From NCBI GenBank assembly GCA_050633245.1, contig JBOEGD010000007.1:219624-283623 (forward strand): DNA of 64,000 bases, in the 5' to 3' direction. Positions within the stretch are counted from its first letter, which is position 1; each line of letters starts with the position of its first letter. The DNA is from Calditrichia bacterium (GTDB lineage: Bacteria > Calditrichota > Calditrichia > RBG-13-44-9 > J075). Under the pieces are notes generated by a model. That model saw only the letters and a list, made by a program, of their open reading frames with translations. It ran no database searches and was not told where the DNA came from. Made by a program: the position numbers and the translations under genes. Shown here piece after piece: positions 1 through 8,948 of this stretch.

Positions 1-350
1 AGCAGGGTCTCAATATTGCCTTCCATACGGTCTTTTTGAGAGTCAGCAACGAACACAACACCGTCTACACCATTCAGAATAATCTTACGGCTGGAGGCAT
101 AATAGACCTGCCCTGGTACCGTGTATAGATTAAACTTTGGTTTTTTACCCTTTATTCTTCCTACTTCGATCTGCATAAAGTCGAAAAAGATGGTACGGTC
201 TTCTTTTGTTTTCAAAGTAACGAGCTCGCCGGTCAGGGAGGGATCCAGCTTAGTATGAATATACTCGAGATTGGTTGTTTTACCGCTCATTCCCGGGCCG
301 TAATACACAATCTTGAGATTTATTTCCTGTAAAGCCCAATTAATAAACAT
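1..350 (-). CDS. mglA: MglA-family small Ras-like GTPase (3' end outside window; missing from the ORF track)
   Basis: Manual translation from ATG at 350: MFINWALQEINLKIVYYGPGMSGKTTNLEYIH...EDRTIFFDF...LYTVPGQVYY...GVDGVVFVADSQ. Shows the P-loop, the MglA intrinsic Arg-finger DRT motif and the MglA-type TVPGQ G3 motif. Lies directly downstream of mglB. Confidence 0.95.
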   Translation of the reverse strand, partial: MFINWALQEINLKIVYYGPGMSGKTTNLEYIHTKLDPSLTGELVTLKTKEDRTIFFDFMQIEVGRIKGKKPKFNLYTVPGQVYYASSRKIILNGVDGVVFVADSQKDRMEGNIETL

Positions 351-416
351 AATAATTCTCACTTCAATTTTAGAGTTTCAGCTCCATTAAATTCCAGGCG
401 ATCCGGCAGAAGAAGC

Positions 417-926
417 TTACTTAAATGATTCATCCAGCATGTCGCCGAGCATGCTGCTGAAATCCTGATCAATAATTTTACCGGCATCATCACCTGCTTC
501 AGAGGTATCGAATACAGTAAGCAGATTTTGTATGGCTTTCTTGGTATAGATTCGAACGAGTCCCAGCGTTACGCTGACGTCGAATACGACGACCAGAAAG
601 AAGTTATCACCAACATTAGACAGATATACATTGCGCTTTTCACCTTCGTGAAACAGCAGCTTAAACTTTGCATCTTCTCCAACCAGTTTCGCCATCTCGG
701 ACGTAGCGGCAAAATCACTAGCGGCCAGAGCAGACAAAATAGCGGTGTTAATATCATCTGTATTACCACGCTGGGTAATCAGCTGTCCGCTGATATCGGC
801 AAGCAAAATAGTCGATGCTTTCGTCTTAGCTGCCAGTTCAGACAGAATTTTTGTTATCTCATCGAACTGCTTAGCAGTTAAAATGATCTGACGACTTCCG
901 TCTTTCAACTTCTTGACTTGTACCAT
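417..926 (-). CDS. mglB: MglB roadblock/LC7-domain GTPase-activating protein
   Basis: ALAASDFAATSEMAKLVGE..FKLLFHEGEK..VFDVSVTLGLVR resembles MglB. Has a C-terminal helix DFSSMLGDMLDESF and is adjacent to mglA. Confidence 0.92.
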   Translation of the reverse strand: MVQVKKLKDGSRQIILTAKQFDEITKILSELAAKTKASTILLADISGQLITQRGNTDDINTAILSALAASDFAATSEMAKLVGEDAKFKLLFHEGEKRNVYLSNVGDNFFLVVVFDVSVTLGLVRIYTKKAIQNLLTVFDTSEAGDDAGKIIDQDFSSMLGDMLDESFK

Positions 927-954
927 GATATGAACTCTCCCTGAAATAGGTTGA

Positions 955-1749
955 CTAAAAACGGCCTATAGTCGATTTGGTTTTAAGCCGGGTAAGGCTG
1001 GTTTTAAGGCTTTCTTTCATTCTATCGATAGCAACTGCGAGCACCTGTAATTCATTTTTCGCCTTTACTTCAATCGGGGCGTTAAAATTACCCATGCTTA
1101 TCTCGTTTGCCGCCTCTGTTAACTTAATCACTGGTCGTGTCACCTGCACGGTAATCACTGCCAGGGCTACCAGAATAATAATCAGTGTTCCGATGGCAAT
1201 AACGGCACCGATTAAGAGCAGCGTACGATTAATCTGCTCATCGATAAACGATTTTCGCAGTCCAACGCGCACAAATCCGAGTAAACCATCCTTTATAGGA
1301 TAGGTAATATCGTATACTTCGCGCTCCTGTACTTTGTTTGGGGTCACCGAATACACTTCGCCGCTTGAGAAATCATAGTTCTCATAGATAGCGTTCGTCT
1401 CTGGCCCTGAAGACAGTTCCGCCGGAAGCTGCCCATTATAAGTGTCGGAAACGACTGCATAATCTGCATCTACTATCAATATATATTCATTACTTAGATA
1501 GTATCGGTATTTTTCAAGAATTTTCTTAAGTCCGACAACATCTTCTTCAATTAACTTTTCAGCGGCGAGCTCAGCTATACTCCCGGCGATAATTCTTCCC
1601 TGCTCTTCGAGGGATTTTTGCAGGGTATCGCCCAGAAAAGAAGAGGTAACTGCGATGATCACACCGCTAAAGACAATTGCACCAATCAAAATGTAAAGTG
1701 TAATCTTAAAGCGCAAATTGTTGAACAATCCTGTTGACTCTGCCATCAA
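955..1749 (-). CDS. Two-TM membrane sensor with a Cache-like extracytoplasmic domain and terminal HAMP domain, no output domain
   Basis: Two hydrophobic helices. HAMP signature TRPVIKLTEAANEISMGNF..NELQVLAVAIDRM, and the protein ends about 20 aa later. Confidence 0.85.
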   Translation of the reverse strand: MMAESTGLFNNLRFKITLYILIGAIVFSGVIIAVTSSFLGDTLQKSLEEQGRIIAGSIAELAAEKLIEEDVVGLKKILEKYRYYLSNEYILIVDADYAVVSDTYNGQLPAELSSGPETNAIYENYDFSSGEVYSVTPNKVQEREVYDITYPIKDGLLGFVRVGLRKSFIDEQINRTLLLIGAVIAIGTLIIILVALAVITVQVTRPVIKLTEAANEISMGNFNAPIEVKAKNELQVLAVAIDRMKESLKTSLTRLKTKSTIGRF

Positions 1750-2222
1750 ATCAATCCCTTTAGTTTTTGTAACATCTCTCGTTGAAACTCTATTCGTTTT
1801 TCATCATTGGAAATTTCCATGGTCAGCAGCTCGACCAGCTGTGGTAGCTGCCGTTTATCCAGATTGGCGCGGCTTCGCTTTAACTCACGCAGCATGTCAT
1901 CTACCAGGATTGCCGCCACCGGGCCAAGATAGTAGGTTAAGCGATACTCCAGTTCAGAAAATAGTTCGGCTGATACGTACGGATCGTTTCCATTGCTTTC
2001 CACCAGCTCGAGTAATCCGGCTTTTTCAAGTCGTTCAAAAAGCTCATGAGTCTCATCCATATTCAGTGCGAGGATTTCGCCAATCTGGCTCACGCTCTTT
2101 TCACCATTAAGCTGAGTAACAATAGCCCACTCCAGACTCTTCAGCTTCATTTCCGATGGCGAACGCTTGCTGTTTACGCGGAAGACCATGTTATCGTGGA
2201 TCGTTATGCCTGCCACGCTCAC
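1746..2222 (-). CDS. Winged-helix protein with a C-terminal helical 'LGPVAAILV' domain
   Basis: EWAIVTQLNGEKSVSQIGEILAL..ELFERLEKAGLL is wHTH-like. 4-bp overlaps with both neighbours. Confidence 0.7.
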   Translation of the reverse strand: MSVAGITIHDNMVFRVNSKRSPSEMKLKSLEWAIVTQLNGEKSVSQIGEILALNMDETHELFERLEKAGLLELVESNGNDPYVSAELFSELEYRLTYYLGPVAAILVDDMLRELKRSRANLDKRQLPQLVELLTMEISNDEKRIEFQREMLQKLKGLI

Positions 2223-2668
2223 TTCCCTTCCCGCATATTTTCCAGCATTATCTTCTCTACTTCATCGAGCCGAGCAGAATTTATATTGGTAAATTTCTGT
2301 TCGGGAAGCTTGCGAAGCGTCCTGCGCCATTTTTTCCCGTTGTCAATATCGTGTATCGCCACGTTCATTGCCATACGAATATGAGCAATTTCTACGGAAA
2401 GGCGTGCTATCACCGTCACATATAAGCGGGAGTGACTCCTAACGAAGACTAAACCGCGGTCGAATGGTAGTACTAATTCATCCATATCATATCGTAAATA
2501 CTCCAGCAAGCCAAAAATATGCTGAAAGGTTTCACCGGTTTCAACGAATACGCTGGGATTGTATTTCGGCGTATTCCATGAGTCGATAATCTGATTGCGA
2601 TTATCGTAAACCACCACAGCTTCGATGCCGTTAATTGCGATGAGTTCAGAAAATGCGTCTGTAATCAA
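2219..2668 (-). CDS. Divergent roadblock/LC7-like protein (MglB/MglC-like)
   Basis: FSELIAINGIEAVVVYDNRNQII..DELVLPFDRGLVFVR..LYVTVIA..EIAHIRMAM follows the roadblock secondary-structure pattern. Translationally coupled to neighbours. Confidence 0.65.
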   Translation of the reverse strand: MITDAFSELIAINGIEAVVVYDNRNQIIDSWNTPKYNPSVFVETGETFQHIFGLLEYLRYDMDELVLPFDRGLVFVRSHSRLYVTVIARLSVEIAHIRMAMNVAIHDIDNGKKWRRTLRKLPEQKFTNINSARLDEVEKIMLENMREGK

Positions 2669-3693
2669 AGTTTTATCCCCCGAAAGACCTGCCCCACCAG
2701 CTTTTGTGGGTCCAGCCGGGTAAGCTCTACATCGTAGCGATTTGCCAATTGCAGCACATCTTCGCTGATTTTGGCTAGATTAATACGTCTTGCTCGCCAG
2801 GTCGGCAGGCTTTTTAAAACGCGGTTGATTGCAATAACCATCCCTTGAATAAAGGTAGCATTGTGCAGCAGGCGGCGAACGGCGAATTGAGTTGCATTGA
2901 GAGTAATAACGCCACTGCTGGGGCTTAAAAATGGATAGTGATCTGCCAGTTCGGCACTCACCTTACTAAATGCCCCCTCAAAGCGATTCTTGCGAAACTG
3001 ATCGTTAACGAGCTTGCTTAAATAGTCAATCAGTTCTTTCCAAAAGGCCAGATAATTCTGATGCTGCCAGGGAATGAGAAATACATCTTCCTCGACAATC
3101 GTTGTAGGTTTTTTGGCGCGAAAAACTGAGACACTTGGCTGAATCATCTCGCCGATTGACTGAAATTTTTGATATACATTATCGCCCGAGGCCAATTTAC
3201 CGGAATTTGAGACAATCACGGCATCGGCCGGAATTCCTTCCAGATAGTAAACCGTCCCCTGCCCTTTTGTCCCGCTAAACTCTAAATCTACATAACCGGT
3301 TACAGAGTCTTTCTCCAGTAAATCAAAGATCTGACCGAGCGTATAATTACTCAATTCCTGGGCGGTTTTATACACCCGGGACTGAATCGCATATGCAAGC
3401 GCCAGAGCCACTTCGCTATTCAGCGCGTAGACTTCGATGGTCCCATCTTCGTCTTCAGCCTTTTCCATTAGACGAACAACGGCCTTCTCGTTGGTAAGAC
3501 GAACGTCATCTTCCTCTGAGTAAGCCTCGATCATACGTCCCATATCCATCACCAAAACGCCTTCATACTCCCAAAAGGTCAGCTTTACATAGCCACTGAA
3601 GCGGCTTTCTGCCTGTTGTTGAAGCAGCTGGTCGAATTTTGTAAACGACGTGCTGAGATTGCGATGTTTTTCTATACCTTGCGGTAGAAGCAC
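2665..3693 (-). CDS. Protein with two tandem DUF4388/DUF2226 (PATAN-like) domains
   Basis: Internal repeat: FDQLLQQQAESRFSGYVKL..EGVLVMDMGRMIEA versus IFDLLEKDSVTGYVDL..QGTVYYLEGIPADA. Confidence 0.65.
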   Translation of the reverse strand: MLLPQGIEKHRNLSTSFTKFDQLLQQQAESRFSGYVKLTFWEYEGVLVMDMGRMIEAYSEEDDVRLTNEKAVVRLMEKAEDEDGTIEVYALNSEVALALAYAIQSRVYKTAQELSNYTLGQIFDLLEKDSVTGYVDLEFSGTKGQGTVYYLEGIPADAVIVSNSGKLASGDNVYQKFQSIGEMIQPSVSVFRAKKPTTIVEEDVFLIPWQHQNYLAFWKELIDYLSKLVNDQFRKNRFEGAFSKVSAELADHYPFLSPSSGVITLNATQFAVRRLLHNATFIQGMVIAINRVLKSLPTWRARRINLAKISEDVLQLANRYDVELTRLDPQKLVGQVFRGIKL

Positions 3694-3704
3694 GGTGTTG
3701 CGCC

Positions 3705-4355
3705 TTATTTTAAGCTAACCTGTTTCAGAACTTTTTTAACCATTGTGGTAAACTCCGGCGTAATCACGCGATGGTCGGTTTGCACCACAATCAAGTTGGG
3801 TCGGAATTCGAATATAAAGTAGTAGCCGTCCCGCGTCCGCAGCTTCATAAACTGAAACATTTCGGAATAAAACAGATTCAGCATCTTCTTCAATTTATAC
3901 CAGATAAAGGTAAGTGCCAGAGGGTGAATAGCCTCTATTTTACCTTCTATTACCTGTCCGTTATAGTTTAAAACGAATACATTTTGAACATTTTTAAGAC
4001 CGGAGAGCAGCGCAAACAACTGCCTTGGAATGGGTGCAGTATGGGCTGTCTTCTCATCCATTACTCGCAACCCTTCCAGCACAACCGAATTCCAGGGCTG
4101 CATAATAGTCTGCGTTGGCGCATCGATATCGGCTTCGACCTTGAACTCGCCTTCTTCCAGAGAAAGCAATTCGTGCACAGCGCGTTCACCGACGAACGGG
4201 CCATATTCCGAATGCGTCATCGCGCCATTGGCGAAATAGATGGTGCCGGTTAAATCCATTGCCCGGACTGTCACGCGTGCTTTATTGCGCTCAATACAGT
4301 TTATCTGGATGATATTTGCCAGCCTAAGGTCTTTCAGATTGCCAACGAGGGCCAT
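3705..4355 (-). CDS. DUF4388 (PatA N-terminal-like) domain protein with a probable C-terminal roadblock-like domain
   Basis: MALVGNLKDLRLANIIQ..GTIYFANGAMTHSEYG..GERAVHELLSLEEGEF is typical of DUF4388. C-terminal LSGLKNVQNVFVLNYNGQVI is roadblock-like. Confidence 0.8.
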   Translation of the reverse strand: MALVGNLKDLRLANIIQINCIERNKARVTVRAMDLTGTIYFANGAMTHSEYGPFVGERAVHELLSLEEGEFKVEADIDAPTQTIMQPWNSVVLEGLRVMDEKTAHTAPIPRQLFALLSGLKNVQNVFVLNYNGQVIEGKIEAIHPLALTFIWYKLKKMLNLFYSEMFQFMKLRTRDGYYFIFEFRPNLIVVQTDHRVITPEFTTMVKKVLKQVSLK

Positions 4356-4358
4356 AGG

Positions 4359-4730
4359 TTATCCGAGTATCGTTAATACGTGTTGCTTGAGTTCGTGAAT
4401 ATCAAATGGTTTCTCCACATACCAGTCGGCACCCTTTGCATAGGCATCCTGCTTGCGTTCATCCGAACCATAAGCCGTTATCACCACGGCATGAAGCTCT
4501 TTGTTCAGCGCTTTCAGATGTGCCAGCAAATCGAGGCCATTGAGACCCGGCATAGAGATATCGGTTATCAAAATATCAAACGGGGAGGCTTCATAATGCG
4601 TAATTGCTTCTTCGCTGGATGAAGCGGTAACCACTTCACAGTCTATTGGGGCATTAATAAACGTTTGATAGAGGCTGAAGGTTAGCGTTTCTTCATCATC
4701 TACTATCAACAGGCGTTTTACCTCATTCAT
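4359..4730 (-). CDS. Single-domain response regulator (CheY-like receiver)
   Basis: LIVDDEE, ITDISMPGLNG, TAYG and EKPF motifs. Confidence 0.95.
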   Translation of the reverse strand: MNEVKRLLIVDDEETLTFSLYQTFINAPIDCEVVTASSSEEAITHYEASPFDILITDISMPGLNGLDLLAHLKALNKELHAVVITAYGSDERKQDAYAKGADWYVEKPFDIHELKQHVLTILG

Positions 4731-4766
4731 GTCAACATCCTTCTTCAGCGCAATCTTCCGGTAACT

Positions 4767-6002
4767 TTATTGTCTTGCCGGTAATGAGATTGTAAAGCGT
4801 GTACCTTCACCTTCCCTGCTACTTACTTCCAGCGTGCCTTCGTGCTCTTCAACGAGACGATTGCAGATGGATAACCCCAGTCCGGTTCCTTCAGGACGTG
4901 TGGTAAAAAACGGATTAAAAATTTTCTCCAGATGTTCGGGTGCGATTCCGCTGCCGCTATCCGAGATTTCAATGCGTATTATTGGCTGTTTTCCCGAGCG
5001 GGTTACGCCGCCTTTCCATTGCCGACGCTCGAGTGTCAATCGTCTTGCCTCAATAGCAAGAGCCCCACCATCCGGCATGGCGTCGATGGCATTGAGCAGC
5101 AAATTAAGCAGAATCTGCTCCATCTGTCCGCCATCGGCGTAAATCTGTAAACCGGCTTCAATATTTTCCTGCCAGTGAATTGCGTTTTTCTTCATCATCG
5201 CCAACAAGAGCAACCTCACGCCGCCGACCAGCTTCTCTACGCTGTGCTGCTGCATATCCGGACGCGAAGGACGGGCAAATCGAAAAAATTCATTTAACAG
5301 CTTATTTGAGCGATCCACTTCCCGAATTACCCTTTCGAGCAGTCCGCGGCGAGGATCTCCACTGTCGAATTGTTCTTCCAATACCTGTGATGCTGCCTTA
5401 ATTCCAGCCAGTGGATTTCGAATCTCATGCGCTATGCCGGCCGAGAGCTCGCCCAATAACGCCAGGCGCTCCATTCGGGTAACCTGTTCTTTTAACTGCT
5501 GTATCTCGGTAAGATCCCGAAAAGAAAGAATCAAACCTTCGAACCGATTATTATGATCATTTAGTGGAGACGCATTTATGTCTACGCGAATCTCACGACC
5601 ATCGCTGCAGGCAAATGTCGCATCCCAATCATCAATCTTATTGTCCGGCAACAGGGCCTCGGCAAGAAATCGATCGGCCTCTGCTCGTTCGGTAAAAAAG
5701 TTTTGCAGCCGCTTTCCCAACAGCCATTCCGTCTCGCAACCCAATAGCTTCGCAGCATTCTTGTTTGCAAAGGTGATTTCCCCTGCGCGATCCAGAGCAA
5801 GCAGCCCCAAATTAACGTTCTGAATAATGCTTTTGTGAAAATGGTATACCTGGTTTAACAGACGTTGCTGTGGGACAGAATCGCGGTGCGGTGAGCCAGA
5901 ATCCGCCTGCGCCGGTGGACTTGTTTCCTGATCGTTATCCCGGGGCTGCAAATTCAGCAAAGACAATATTTGCTTCTGCTTGTTCAATCGTGATGTCATC
6001 AA
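4767..6002 (-). CDS. Cytoplasmic PAS sensor histidine kinase (NtrB/AtoS-like)
   Basis: PAS domain, H-box AHEIRNPL, N-box NLLLNAIDA, DSGSG, FNPFFTT and GTGLGL. No TM helix. Confidence 0.95.
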   Translation of the reverse strand: MMTSRLNKQKQILSLLNLQPRDNDQETSPPAQADSGSPHRDSVPQQRLLNQVYHFHKSIIQNVNLGLLALDRAGEITFANKNAAKLLGCETEWLLGKRLQNFFTERAEADRFLAEALLPDNKIDDWDATFACSDGREIRVDINASPLNDHNNRFEGLILSFRDLTEIQQLKEQVTRMERLALLGELSAGIAHEIRNPLAGIKAASQVLEEQFDSGDPRRGLLERVIREVDRSNKLLNEFFRFARPSRPDMQQHSVEKLVGGVRLLLLAMMKKNAIHWQENIEAGLQIYADGGQMEQILLNLLLNAIDAMPDGGALAIEARRLTLERRQWKGGVTRSGKQPIIRIEISDSGSGIAPEHLEKIFNPFFTTRPEGTGLGLSICNRLVEEHEGTLEVSSREGEGTRFTISLPARQ

Positions 6003-6713
6003 TCTGCATTCCCGTTAAAGCACGCTGCCAATATAGAACATTTTTGCTCCAAAATAAACACATTTCTGCGTATTTATAGCGGTTCGATCAGGCAATCAAT
6101 TTGTTGATTTACAGGGTTTTACACTTGCTTTAATAAAAGATTCACCGGTGCCGCCACTACTTTGTAATAGTAGCGTGAGGCTATGGATTGAAACGGAGAA
6201 CATCTTATTCTCATATGATTACTGAATTCTAAACAGATTATGTTGCAAAATATCACACGCAAACCAGCGTTTTTTTTATGTTAAAAATGCAAACTTTAAC
6301 AAATCTCGTTTTTCATGTCATAAATTCTCACATTTATCCGATAATTAAACAGTAAACGCATAAAAAATGCGTAATCAGCGCAACCGGGGTGGATTTATTC
6401 ATTTTTTTTTGTCATATTGCATTCCTGTAACAGATTGACTTTCCCGATAACGCAGACTTCCGCATTAAAAGTGATATAACACTGACAGGATGACGCCCTC
6501 ATCTCGAACAACTGGTTCTTCTCCAGCGTCCTACTGTTATGATGTGTACCTGCTTAAGGGTTATGAAATACGAAAATTTAAATGTGCGCATGCGCATACA
6601 AGTCGGGTATTTGTACGCTAAGTTCATATTGCCTTTGCCCCTAAAGGTGCTGTCTGAACAGCTTTAGCGCATTACTTTTAGTCCGGAAAAACCGGTAGAT
6701 CAGGCAATTCGTC

Positions 6714-8948
6714 ATGAAAGAAAAAGTATTTTCTTCCCTCAACTTACTCCTCGACACTGTAGAAGGTGCAAATCTTCTATTGGAATACTATGCTTCGTTT
6801 AGTAAACGAGTAATGGGCGCACATGATTTCAAAACAATCCTGACCGTCTTTTCCGAAGAGCTAAAGCATATTTACGTCACTCAAAACATTGAAATAATCC
6901 TCTGGCAAAACAATAAGCGCCTGGTAAAGTTTTTATATGACGACACCAAAAAGCGCGTTTACCCTGCTGAAGAGTTTTCACAAAAGAATACGCTCTACAA
7001 CTACGTGCTGGAAAGACAGCAGATAGTACTCACCAATAGCTATGCCAGCTTCTGCGACAATGTTGGCCTTGGAAAAGGCCAGATTAACGCGAGCTCCTGG
7101 TTGGGCATACCTATGAAGGTGCGCGACAAAGTACTGGGTGCAGTGGTTGTCTGGGACCCCACAACGGAACATTATCTGCGGCTACAGGATCGGCACTTCC
7201 TGACGACGGTAACAGATATGGTCAGCTTCGCGATGGAGAACGTCTATCTATCGGATTACATCGTCGAGAAGAGCGATTCCTACAGTATTGTTGAGCTTGC
7301 TCTGCCGACCAAAAAGATACGCAATTCCACAAAAGGTGTGCTCAAACACCTGCATCACGCCATCAGTCGCCAGGAAAATGTGCTCTACAACGGCATCTTC
7401 CTGCGTCCCAGTGAAACCAATCGCTGGCAGTTGCTATCCGAGAATTATGAAAAGCCCATTCTTGGTAAACTGGGAATTCAGTTGCTTAATACGCTTCCAG
7501 CGTTTAACCACGCAAGCACCGAAGAGTCTGATATGTTGATATGGAAGAATACCGACAAAAACAATTTGCTCAATAAAACGCTTTCCGCACCGATGCGAAC
7601 GTTTGGAATTGAGAATGCACTATTCTTTCCTTTTGTCGTAAATCATAGCTATCTCGGCGCTTGGATTATCGCATTTGATGGCAAGACAACGTCCATCTCT
7701 CCCGATCAGCAGCAGTTGTATCAGTTTATTCTGTATATCATGACGCAGCTGATCGAGAAGCAGGCACTGCTTGAGCGCAAGCGCAAGTATGAAGCCTATA
7801 CGCGGCATTTAGAACGCATGAAATCTGTTGGGGAGGTGGCAAGTAGTTCGGCACACCACCTGAACAATGTACTTAGCGTTATTATCGGGAAAGGACAGCT
7901 TCTGCAAAAGAAGCTGGAAGGCACGCCGTATGAACGCGATCTATCGCTAATGTTGCAGGCAGCAGGTGATGGCGCCAATACCATAAGGCGCATGCAGCTG
8001 CGGGATGTGAACGATGTTGTCCCGCATGACGATTCGAAGTTTCTGGTGCTCAACTTCAATAATCTTATTCAGGAAGTCGTCGATATAGCTCGGCCACGGA
8101 TTGAGGCTGAATCGAAAAACCGTGGACTGCACTACGAGATTGCCCTTTCGCTGGGAGACATTAAGCCAGTTAAGGGCGATGCAACAGAATTGCGGGAGAT
8201 TCTTTTTAATCTCATCAACAATTCGATTGATGCCATGCCTCGAGGGGGCAAAGTAGCATTACAGACCACGCTGAAAGACAACAAGGTCATGATCTTCGTC
8301 AGCGATACCGGAATCGGCATCCCGGAAGGCATTCGCGATAAAATTTTCCAACCGTTCTACACCACGAAAGGGAAAAATGGAAATGGACTCGGCCTGAGTA
8401 TTGCACGCGAGGTTATTAGTAAGCATCGTGGTAAAATCTATGTCGATTCTATTCCACAAAAGGGCTCAATATTTATGATAGAGCTTCCCTTTACCAAAGA
8501 CGCACCTATGCCGCACACAAATGAAGACGTGTTGCTTAAACCACTTAATCACCGAATTCTTTTAGTTGAGGATGAAGGCGTCGTTCGCGAAACGGTAGCA
8601 GAGATTCTACAGGATGAAGGCTGCACGGTTATTTCCGCATCGAATGCCAATGAAGCACTCTTGAAATTTCAAAAAATTCAGTGTGATGCCGTATTTACTG
8701 ACCTCAGCATGCCTAACGTTAACGGAATCGAGCTATCGCATAAGCTGAAGAAACTGAATCCCAATATCCCAATATTTATTATTACCGGCTGGAATCAAAT
8801 GGACCCGGCAATGATAACAGCGAATGGCGTTATCGATGGCATTATTCAAAAGCCGCTGAATATCGACAATGTCCGCCAGGAACTTATGCGCATTACGACC
8901 AGCCGCAATGGCAATGGTGTCGCCCAAAAGAATGGTTTTCACGTATAA
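6714..8948 (+). CDS. GAF-containing hybrid histidine kinase with C-terminal receiver
   Basis: GAF (SWLGIPMKVRDKVLGAVVV), H-box SAHHLNNVL, NLINNSIDA, DTGIG, GNGLGL, then receiver LVEDE..TDLSMP..QKP. Confidence 0.92.
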   Translation: MKEKVFSSLNLLLDTVEGANLLLEYYASFSKRVMGAHDFKTILTVFSEELKHIYVTQNIEIILWQNNKRLVKFLYDDTKKRVYPAEEFSQKNTLYNYVLERQQIVLTNSYASFCDNVGLGKGQINASSWLGIPMKVRDKVLGAVVVWDPTTEHYLRLQDRHFLTTVTDMVSFAMENVYLSDYIVEKSDSYSIVELALPTKKIRNSTKGVLKHLHHAISRQENVLYNGIFLRPSETNRWQLLSENYEKPILGKLGIQLLNTLPAFNHASTEESDMLIWKNTDKNNLLNKTLSAPMRTFGIENALFFPFVVNHSYLGAWIIAFDGKTTSISPDQQQLYQFILYIMTQLIEKQALLERKRKYEAYTRHLERMKSVGEVASSSAHHLNNVLSVIIGKGQLLQKKLEGTPYERDLSLMLQAAGDGANTIRRMQLRDVNDVVPHDDSKFLVLNFNNLIQEVVDIARPRIEAESKNRGLHYEIALSLGDIKPVKGDATELREILFNLINNSIDAMPRGGKVALQTTLKDNKVMIFVSDTGIGIPEGIRDKIFQPFYTTKGKNGNGLGLSIAREVISKHRGKIYVDSIPQKGSIFMIELPFTKDAPMPHTNEDVLLKPLNHRILLVEDEGVVRETVAEILQDEGCTVISASNANEALLKFQKIQCDAVFTDLSMPNVNGIELSHKLKKLNPNIPIFIITGWNQMDPAMITANGVIDGIIQKPLNIDNVRQELMRITTSRNGNGVAQKNGFHV

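Follow-up and report, generated by a model that had tools for sequence, protein, structure and literature searches.

What does it mean that a histidine kinase, a receiver, several candidate adaptor proteins and a membrane sensor are encoded in unbroken series with a small GTPase and its partner protein? The question is raised by a 64-kb stretch of DNA from a Calditrichia bacterium (GenBank assembly GCA_050633245.1, contig JBOEGD010000007.1; G000:C7:219624-283623), referred to here as the window, whose first 6 kb carry a run of nine genes ending in mglB and mglA. The answer we favour, with a confidence a little above even, is that one operon hard-wires the cell's only Group-1 MglA/MglB switch to inputs and adaptors of its own.

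Organization of the locus

By the open reading frame (ORF) list, all nine genes lie on the minus strand; they are given below in the order of their presumed transcription.

6002..4767, minus strand: HK, a soluble PAS histidine kinase of 411 residues and the first gene of the operon (Pfam PAS, HisKA, HATPase_c)
4730..4359, minus strand: REC, a stand-alone receiver of 123 residues (Response_reg, 86 bits)
4355..3705, minus strand: g3, 216 residues, with PATAN (DUF4388) first and a Roadblock/LC7-like domain after it (DUF4388, 57.8 bits)
3693..2665, minus strand: g4, a tandem pair of PATAN-like alpha/beta domains with a helical domain at the C-terminus, 342 residues (AlphaFold2 model; relatives match DUF4388)
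2668..2219, minus strand: g5, a small Roadblock-like protein of 149 residues without a Pfam family of its own (hhalign alignment to MglB)
2222..1746, minus strand: g6, a winged helix followed by DUF8082, 158 residues (fold matches and PF26309 annotation)
1749..955, minus strand: g7, a sensor composed of a transmembrane segment, a periplasmic sCache_3_2 domain, a second transmembrane segment and a HAMP domain, with no output domain, 264 residues (Pfam)
926..417, minus strand: mglB, a member of the Roadblock/LC7 GTPase-activating protein (GAP) family, 169 residues (Robl_LC7, 46 bits)
362..<1, minus strand: mglA, 5' part of a Group-1 small GTPase gene that runs past the left window edge (match to Myxococcus xanthus MglA)

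A preliminary description of this DNA had reported nine co-oriented, closely spaced genes with three 4-bp overlaps, and the ORF coordinates bear this out: g4 and g5 overlap at 2665-2668, g5 and g6 at 2219-2222, and g6 and g7 at 1746-1749, while the other neighbours are separated by 36 (HK-REC), 3 (REC-g3), 11 (g3-g4), 28 (g7-mglB) and 54 (mglB-mglA) nucleotides. The gene order it gave also stands, with three amendments: mglA is not intact but cut by the window edge, the sensor possesses a periplasmic Cache domain, and the winged-helix protein, which had been compared with DUF742 proteins, carries DUF8082 instead. Past the left edge, mglA runs on and is complete in the genome (L002:9766-10362, 198 residues, or 194 if translation begins, as is likely, at an ATG four codons in). 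It is followed, outside the window, by an intrinsic terminator (L002 9740-9707) made up of a 14-bp stem plus a stretch of T, and the only strong terminator located in the cassette is this one after mglA. Beyond it lie unrelated genes for an MFS transporter, peptidase MA, PvlArgDC, an S41 protease and ExbBD/TonB. The nine genes are best read as one tightly packed, terminator-bounded operon.

The MglA/MglB switch

The GTPase at the end of the operon aligns with the solved M. xanthus MglA over 191 residues (5-195, E 8e-69) and carries the motifs GPGMSGKT, DRT and TVPGQ. Group-1 MglA proteins are defined, in the available text of the survey that established the groups, by an Arg next to the G2 Thr together with the G3 motif TVPGQ (Wuichet and Sogaard-Andersen 2015, PMC4316618). 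In the window protein the Arg, an intrinsic arginine finger, lies in KEDRTIFFDF, which aligns with TETDRTLFFDF of the M. xanthus protein; LYTVPGQVYY, aligned to the same protein, has TVPGQ and not DxxGQ or GTPGQ; and a coupled mglB lies directly upstream on the same strand, 54 nucleotides away. With its Arg finger and TVPGQ motif the protein belongs to Group 1, and is therefore not a conservon-type GTPase. Those Group-1 members that have been characterised control polarity, motility or predation (PMC4316618, available text).

MglB scores 46.3 bits against the Robl_LC7 cut-off of 23, matches solved M. xanthus MglB over residues 12-167 (E 1.1e-23 to 6hjm_A and 1.2e-23 to 6izw_B) and bears a conserved acidic C-terminal extension; the NCBIfam MglB equivalog model gives 81 bits, under its cut-off of 200. 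By family membership, MglB is a putative GAP of MglA. The mglB-mglA pair is a member of the Group-1 MglA/MglB module.

MglA, MglB, g4, g5 and g6 are each present in single copy in the genome, and the proteins evolve at very different rates. Across the Calditrichota loci described below, tblastn identity to the window proteins is 80-96% for MglA and 73-97% for MglB, as against 50-68% for REC, 36-52% for HK, 31-75% for g3, 28-63% for g6, 27-65% for g7, 28-56% for g4 and 23-59% for g5. Because the pair is so strongly conserved beside fast-evolving adaptors, these values suggest a hub with many contacts.

Conservation within the Calditrichota

An alignment scan of genome contigs yielded 21 loci with g4, three of which end at contig ends; the other 18 reach mglA, and every one of them has the nine genes in the same order and on the same strand (15 by tblastn alone, three with a divergent g5 read as an ORF). 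Among 20 genomes fetched that have no g4, all 20 keep HK, REC, g3, g6, g7, mglB and mglA in order, and g5 is present in all 13 that were inspected for it (five by tblastn, eight by ORF reading), while in the other seven the position of g5 is taken up by 0.5-0.8 kb of unread sequence. HK was found by tblastn in 21/21 g4-positive and 20/20 g4-negative loci. The preliminary description had staked its case on the upstream genes co-occurring with mglAB in other genomes, and they do: they lie beside mglBA in all 38 Calditrichota loci that reach mglA, with six of the seven constant and g4 optional, and a core of seven genes recurs in all 11 loci from a second phylum.

In a phylum set of 86 genomes, MglA is present in 84, a g6-like protein in 85 and g4 in 32; among high-quality genomes the counts are 52/53 for MglA and 18/53 for g4. 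The Calditrichota core consists of eight genes and g4 is accessory, since g4-negative genomes keep the remaining gene set and g4 occurs in 32 of the 86 genomes. The presence of g4 in seven of the eight families of the phylum, together with pairwise distances that track those of g3 (Spearman 0.90) and g6 (0.88) over 120 non-independent pairs, fits an old member that was lost repeatedly rather than a recent insertion. All relatives of g4 are from Calditrichota wherever the source names them, in keeping with the placement first proposed for this DNA.

At the level of strains, a 58.8-kb contig from public run X1 spans window positions 1-6100 with 200 differences, no gaps and 97% identity; given this full coverage and the few differences, it represents a closely related strain. 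Among the 40 of the 200 differences that were listed, third codon positions account for 11/11 in mglA, 8/8 in mglB, 15/15 in g7 and 2/4 in g6, and two are intergenic. The runs with the largest shares are labelled host-organism or coral/marine metagenome, from which we draw no claim about habitat. Two proteins, P0068 and P0334, are partial homologues of g6 and g3 at 60-63% identity and carry the source label 'Nitrosopumilaceae archaeon', probably the mark of a contig binned to the wrong organism.

In three relatives, 0.3-0.6 kb without a convincing gene separate g5 from g6 (L016 3260-3581, L017 9478-10113, L018 9478-9966); this extra stretch could hold an internal promoter or the remnant of an insertion.

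A second phylum and domain fusions

Outside the phylum, a sample of 215 genomes was searched and a g6-like match at E <= 1e-8 was obtained in 18. One of these, G146, belongs to a second phylum and encodes on one strand a receiver, a PATAN protein with a C-terminal domain, a g5-like protein, a 266-residue protein in which PATAN, winged helix-turn-helix (wHTH) and DUF8082 domains are fused, a sensor with sCache and HAMP domains only, MglB (79% identity) and MglA (84%). This seven-gene order is kept in 11/11 loci of the second phylum, G146 (L058) and all ten others (L062-L071), and g5 is present in every locus inspected in either phylum. The flanking genes differ from those of the Calditrichota. 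The 266-residue fusion occurs in 18/20 genomes of G146's phylum, and fusions of the PATAN-wHTH-DUF8082 type are found in many proteins.

Other fusions join further parts. In G203, the first 196 residues of a 291-residue protein are homologous to the N-terminal half of g4 (hhalign probability 99.7%) and are fused to DUF8082; two genes downstream lies a receptor with dCache and HAMP domains only, and there is no mglAB. Since this gene string has no mglAB, the DUF8082/receptor pair may work without a GTPase. The genome of the window itself encodes two REC-PATAN fusions, of 364 residues (L024:1090-2184, minus strand) and 242 residues (L025:1081-1809, plus strand), whose domain order is that of the separate REC and g3 PATAN of the operon, as well as a cNMP-binding-PATAN-REC protein of 359 residues (L029:1045-2124, plus strand). 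Read from sequence, the REC-PATAN, PATAN-wHTH-DUF8082 and g4N-DUF8082 fusions (g4N being the N-terminal half of g4) tie the parts of the cassette together.

These observations bear on a simple alternative, namely that the string is made up of functionally separate units (HK-REC, the PATAN/Roadblock genes, the sensor pair, mglBA) which stand together by descent only. Flanking genes are partly syntenic within the Calditrichota too, the gaps before mglB (28 nucleotides) and mglA (54 nucleotides) could hold internal promoters, and three loci have the 0.3-0.6 kb gap between g5 and g6. Common descent does not, however, readily account for seven genes that keep their order in a second phylum despite different flanks, for start/stop overlaps that are themselves conserved, for fusions that link the very parts supposed to be separate, or for g4 distances that follow those of g3 and g6 so closely across the 120 non-independent pairs. 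We consider this alternative very unlikely.

Several loci and proteins met in this survey deserve separate record. The G203 string (L059, G203:C43, 7000-11297, minus strand) comprises an unannotated 289-residue protein, the g4N-DUF8082 fusion, a 333-residue protein that resembles by eye a periplasmic solute-binding protein, and the dCache-HAMP-only receptor. In G275 (L060 9823-12183, minus strand), the surroundings of a 240-residue DUF8082-type protein include a CheZ-like gene as well as an integrase of phage type. The 364-residue REC-PATAN protein continues for about 130 residues after PATAN without an identified domain. Contig C9 encodes two adjacent PATAN proteins of 377 (L027:1024-2157, minus strand) and 498 residues (L028:679-2175, minus strand), the latter with a C-terminal stretch that looks by eye like a degenerate P-loop NTPase and is without a Pfam match.

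Receiver and adaptor proteins

The receiver has its full set of phospho-acceptor residues, and across 15 sequences drawn from the two phyla no variation occurs at D11, D12, D57, T85 or K107. Its neighbour g3 clearly begins with a PATAN domain, the DUF4388 score given above exceeding the cut-off of 25 and all 20 scanned family members matching DUF4388. The C-terminal part of g3 matches Robl_LC7 weakly (E 0.016), and 15/20 family members match it too (best 3.1e-5); an Atlas search with this half gave scores of at most 0.83, a lead only, and a search of the g3 sequence against solved structures gave no match.

For g4, the DUF4388 score of 21 bits falls below the same cut-off, yet 21/23 family members match DUF4388 (best 2.3e-7) and 4/23 match DUF2226 weakly. 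The AlphaFold2 model (pLDDT 91, pTM 0.86) shows two similar alpha/beta domains and a helical domain. Searches with the whole-protein model brought up no solved structure that convinces as a relative (best Foldseek hit at E 1.4e-3, TM about 0.12; top VIA Z 5.3), and the sequence gave only chance-level rows against solved structures; it does not follow from this lack of solved relatives that the fold is new. Alignments by hhalign of g4 with g3 and of g4 with the g6 family were both negative.

The window g5 has no Pfam match, while five of 19 relatives match Robl_LC7 weakly (best 0.011). It aligns by hhalign with MglB over 104 columns (probability 61%, E 8e-5) and weakly with g3 (probability 30%), and its Atlas neighbour cluster contains Robl_LC7 in 55% of members (score 0.90). 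The presence of more than one Roadblock-like protein next to a single small GTPase gene suggests a multi-Roadblock platform.

On which protein such a platform would act is a question of its own. M. xanthus has a Roadblock paralogue, MglC, that binds MglB, according to the available text of PMC7949163, and g5 aligns to MglB-like Roadblock proteins; g3 and g5 might, by this analogy, not act on MglA at all but serve as an MglC-like partner of MglB or as a scaffold that places HK-REC, so that the cassette would set the position of MglB and not the nucleotide state of MglA. This arrangement, which amounts to a variant of the same operon logic rather than a departure from it, strikes us as quite unlikely.

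The DUF8082 protein g6 and the HAMP-only sensor g7

The precomputed annotation assigns DUF8082 (PF26309.1) to 92 of 93 proteins from the g6 profile, including the window's own (P0054). The family is large, with 1070 representatives at E <= 1e-3. Seven of 17 scanned representatives have an N-terminal DUF4388, and others contain a Ser/Thr kinase, a ParA-like ATPase or a STAND ATPase. The AlphaFold2 model of g6 has a pLDDT of 86. Its winged helix rests on weak fold matches, among them protein-binding GATOR1 subunits, and all Pfam winged-helix scores are under their cut-offs.

The sensor g7 scores 31 bits for sCache_3_2 and 44 bits for HAMP and ends 15 residues after the HAMP domain, in a short C-terminal tail that is conserved in an alignment of relatives. 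When g6 was modelled together with two copies of the g7 HAMP segment, the predicted complex had an ipSAE of 0.51 (median of 0.35, 0.51 and 0.53), against 0.04 for the best control, with runs agreeing in at least 93% of contacts and a partner pLDDT of at least 72. In the calibration of the tool the mark was reached by 58/80 solved complexes and 2/110 mismatched pairs; passes at or below 0.60 comprised seven of the 80 solved complexes and both passing mismatches, and a pass in this range is more often wrong than right unless the pairing is likely beforehand. The model thus lends weak support to binding of g6 to the g7 HAMP dimer.

A more general idea, tentative and on balance doubtful, is that DUF8082 is the cytoplasmic partner of receptors that end after HAMP. 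The signal would then pass by contact from Cache to HAMP to DUF8082, and on through PATAN/Roadblock adaptors to a Ras-like GTPase, without a kinase, cyclase or methyl-accepting output, in at least two phyla; the parts would be reused elsewhere without MglA, as in G203.

The winged helix also raises the possibility that the cassette controls transcription, the GTPase switch and both sensors acting through g6 on gene expression and not on polarity or pili. Precedents exist, in that both development and metabolism are regulated by conservons, and a role in transcriptional control is predicted for MglA systems of Group 3 (PMC4316618, PMC13343842, available text of both). We nevertheless judge it unlikely. 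The MglA of the window belongs to Group 1, with its record of control over polarity, motility or predation; the winged helix of g6 passes none of the Pfam cut-offs, and its matches, all weak, include protein-binding examples such as the GATOR1 subunits; and the PATAN partners point to pilus motors.

A proposed route from signal to switch

From the observed gene order, spacing, domain content, two-phylum conservation and fusions we infer a mechanism with two inputs. The soluble PAS kinase would phosphorylate the stand-alone receiver, which in its phosphorylated form would act on the PATAN domain of g3, as in the fused REC-PATAN regulators of the PatA type. Next to the MglB dimer, the Roadblock-like domain of g3 and the protein g5 would together make up a second Roadblock platform, acting on MglA or MglB and tuning the GTP/GDP state or the location of MglA. 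In parallel, the output-less sCache-HAMP sensor g7, touching g6 directly at its DUF8082 domain, would relay to it a signal from the periplasm, and g6, which elsewhere carries a PATAN domain of its own, would feed the same adaptor set. Where present, g4 would be an optional extra PATAN-type adaptor.

As its output, the switch would most likely place type IV pilus motors at the poles or set their activity, and so govern surface motility. Type IV pili are the most plausible output, and this is a guess; the genome holds seven matches to T2SSE-family ATPases, and for two of these the open frame runs to 418 and 421 residues. PilB1, the pilus ATPase of Synechocystis, is a binding partner of PATAN regulators, and mglAB is found in the vicinity of PATAN genes (bioRxiv 10.1101/2021.06.11.447907, available text).

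Several results weigh against this account of a single wired switch. The Calditrichota flanks are partly syntenic (GAF hybrid kinase, MFS, peptidase MA, PvlArgDC), and part of the conservation within the phylum is therefore plain vertical inheritance. HK had no match in L062-L071 or L058, and g4 is likewise absent from the second-phylum cassette; the missing kinase there makes it a lineage addition rather than core. The alignment of g3 with MglB by hhalign was negative (probability 0.2%), and the Roadblock assignment of g5 is modest, given its alignment probability and the weak matches of its relatives. The complex prediction for g6 and g7 counts as weak support only, and a HAMP-only receptor accompanies DUF8082 in just two of four loci outside the phylum (G146 and G203); the loci read in G275 and G105 have none near their DUF8082-type proteins. 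Finally, the pilus output being a guess, the winged helix of g6 could instead bind DNA.

The upstream flank

The operon is preceded by a spacer that would be the natural place for its promoter.

6003..6713, no strand: presumed promoter region, a 711-bp A+T-rich intergenic spacer between the operon and a divergent GAF hybrid kinase

The GC content is 0.38 over 6001-7000, and no ORF of at least 60 residues lies wholly inside the spacer. A promoter scan of 6003..6713 found sigma-70-like sites not above chance and no sigma-54-like site. The divergent gene (6714-8948, plus strand) encodes a histidine kinase of 744 residues with GAF, HATPase_c and receiver domains. It is syntenic in 10/21 g4-positive loci and in L038 and L039, not in more distant families, and may be a further input or a mere neighbour.

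Comparison with known systems

The closest relatives of the switch itself are the MglA/MglB modules of M. xanthus and Thermus thermophilus, with which it shares the GTPase and GAP families, the Arg finger, the TVPGQ motif and an mglB directly upstream of mglA. In the Myxococcus module, which includes MglC and RomR/RomX, a receiver-domain protein and extra Roadblock-type proteins take part, as they would here. The difference lies in gene arrangement: here the kinase, receiver, PATAN/Roadblock adaptors, DUF8082 protein and membrane sensor share one operon with mglBA, whereas in M. xanthus and Bdellovibrio bacteriovorus mglA is not near the genes that encode its interacting proteins, as stated in the available text of PMC4316618.

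The preliminary description had called the operon conservon-like, and as an analogy of composition this stands. DUF742 is the family of the CvnC-type protein of conservons. The conservon operon (CvnA-D) encodes a membrane HAMP sensor and a Ras-like GTPase along with a Roadblock protein and a small protein of unknown function (PMC13343842, PMC4316618, available text of both), and the window operon joins the same kinds of parts; the likeness is one of composition only. The parallel fails on three counts. Conservon GTPases are of Group 2, with GTPGQ and Thr instead of Arg in G2, whereas the window MglA, with TVPGQ and DRT, is of Group 1. CvnA is a membrane kinase, whereas g7 is a HAMP sensor without a kinase and stands beside a separate soluble PAS kinase and receiver. 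An LPxR motif, found in the tails of conservon kinases, does occur in the last 30 residues of the window HK, but in only one of 20 relatives, and we rejected it as a conservon hallmark of this kinase for want of conservation. In addition, g6 carries DUF8082; its 19 relatives matched 38 Pfam families at E <= 1, and DUF742 does not appear in the 25 of these that were listed. The window operon also includes PATAN domains.

With the PatA-type regulators of cyanobacteria (PatA itself and those of Synechocystis) the operon shares PATAN through g3, whose gene begins 3 nucleotides downstream of the receiver gene, in a genome that also encodes REC-PATAN fusions. It differs in that PATAN and the receiver belong to two proteins, a Roadblock-like domain being what PATAN is joined to, and in that the tandem PATAN-like g4 is optional. 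Eukaryotic Ragulator-Rag and other platforms of Roadblock or longin domains serve small GTPases and in this resemble the platform proposed here; the likeness involves no homology beyond the fold family and no lysosomal context, the weak winged-helix matches of g6 to GATOR1 subunits aside.

The claim that no characterised system has this composition stands in part. PATAN genes beside mglAB or mglB were reportedly noted by Makarova and colleagues in 2006, as cited by later authors. Such neighbourhoods are in any case already published (Wuichet and Sogaard-Andersen 2015, PMC4316618, available text), and to that extent the claim must be narrowed. For the cassette as a whole we found no published description by title and abstract among the papers listed, and supplementary table S2 of PMC4316618 may list related neighbourhoods; searches for DUF8082, for DUF4388 with roadblock and for Calditrich with MglA likewise found no literature.

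Implications for MglA/MglB signalling

To our knowledge, the activation and placement of a Group-1 MglA are known in detail only for Myxococcus, where the regulators lie dispersed across the genome and are in part specific to the lineage. For an entire phylum, and for a second one as well, the cassette amounts to an inventory of parts: alongside the only mglBA pair it encodes an output-less sensor, a DUF8082 protein, a kinase-receiver pair and two or three PATAN/Roadblock adaptors. It offers candidates for new regulators of MglA/MglB, for the functions of PATAN and DUF8082, and for the targets of HAMP-only receptors. If DUF8082 is indeed the partner of such receptors, the cassette would represent a bacterial receptor-coupled G-protein pathway common to at least two phyla.

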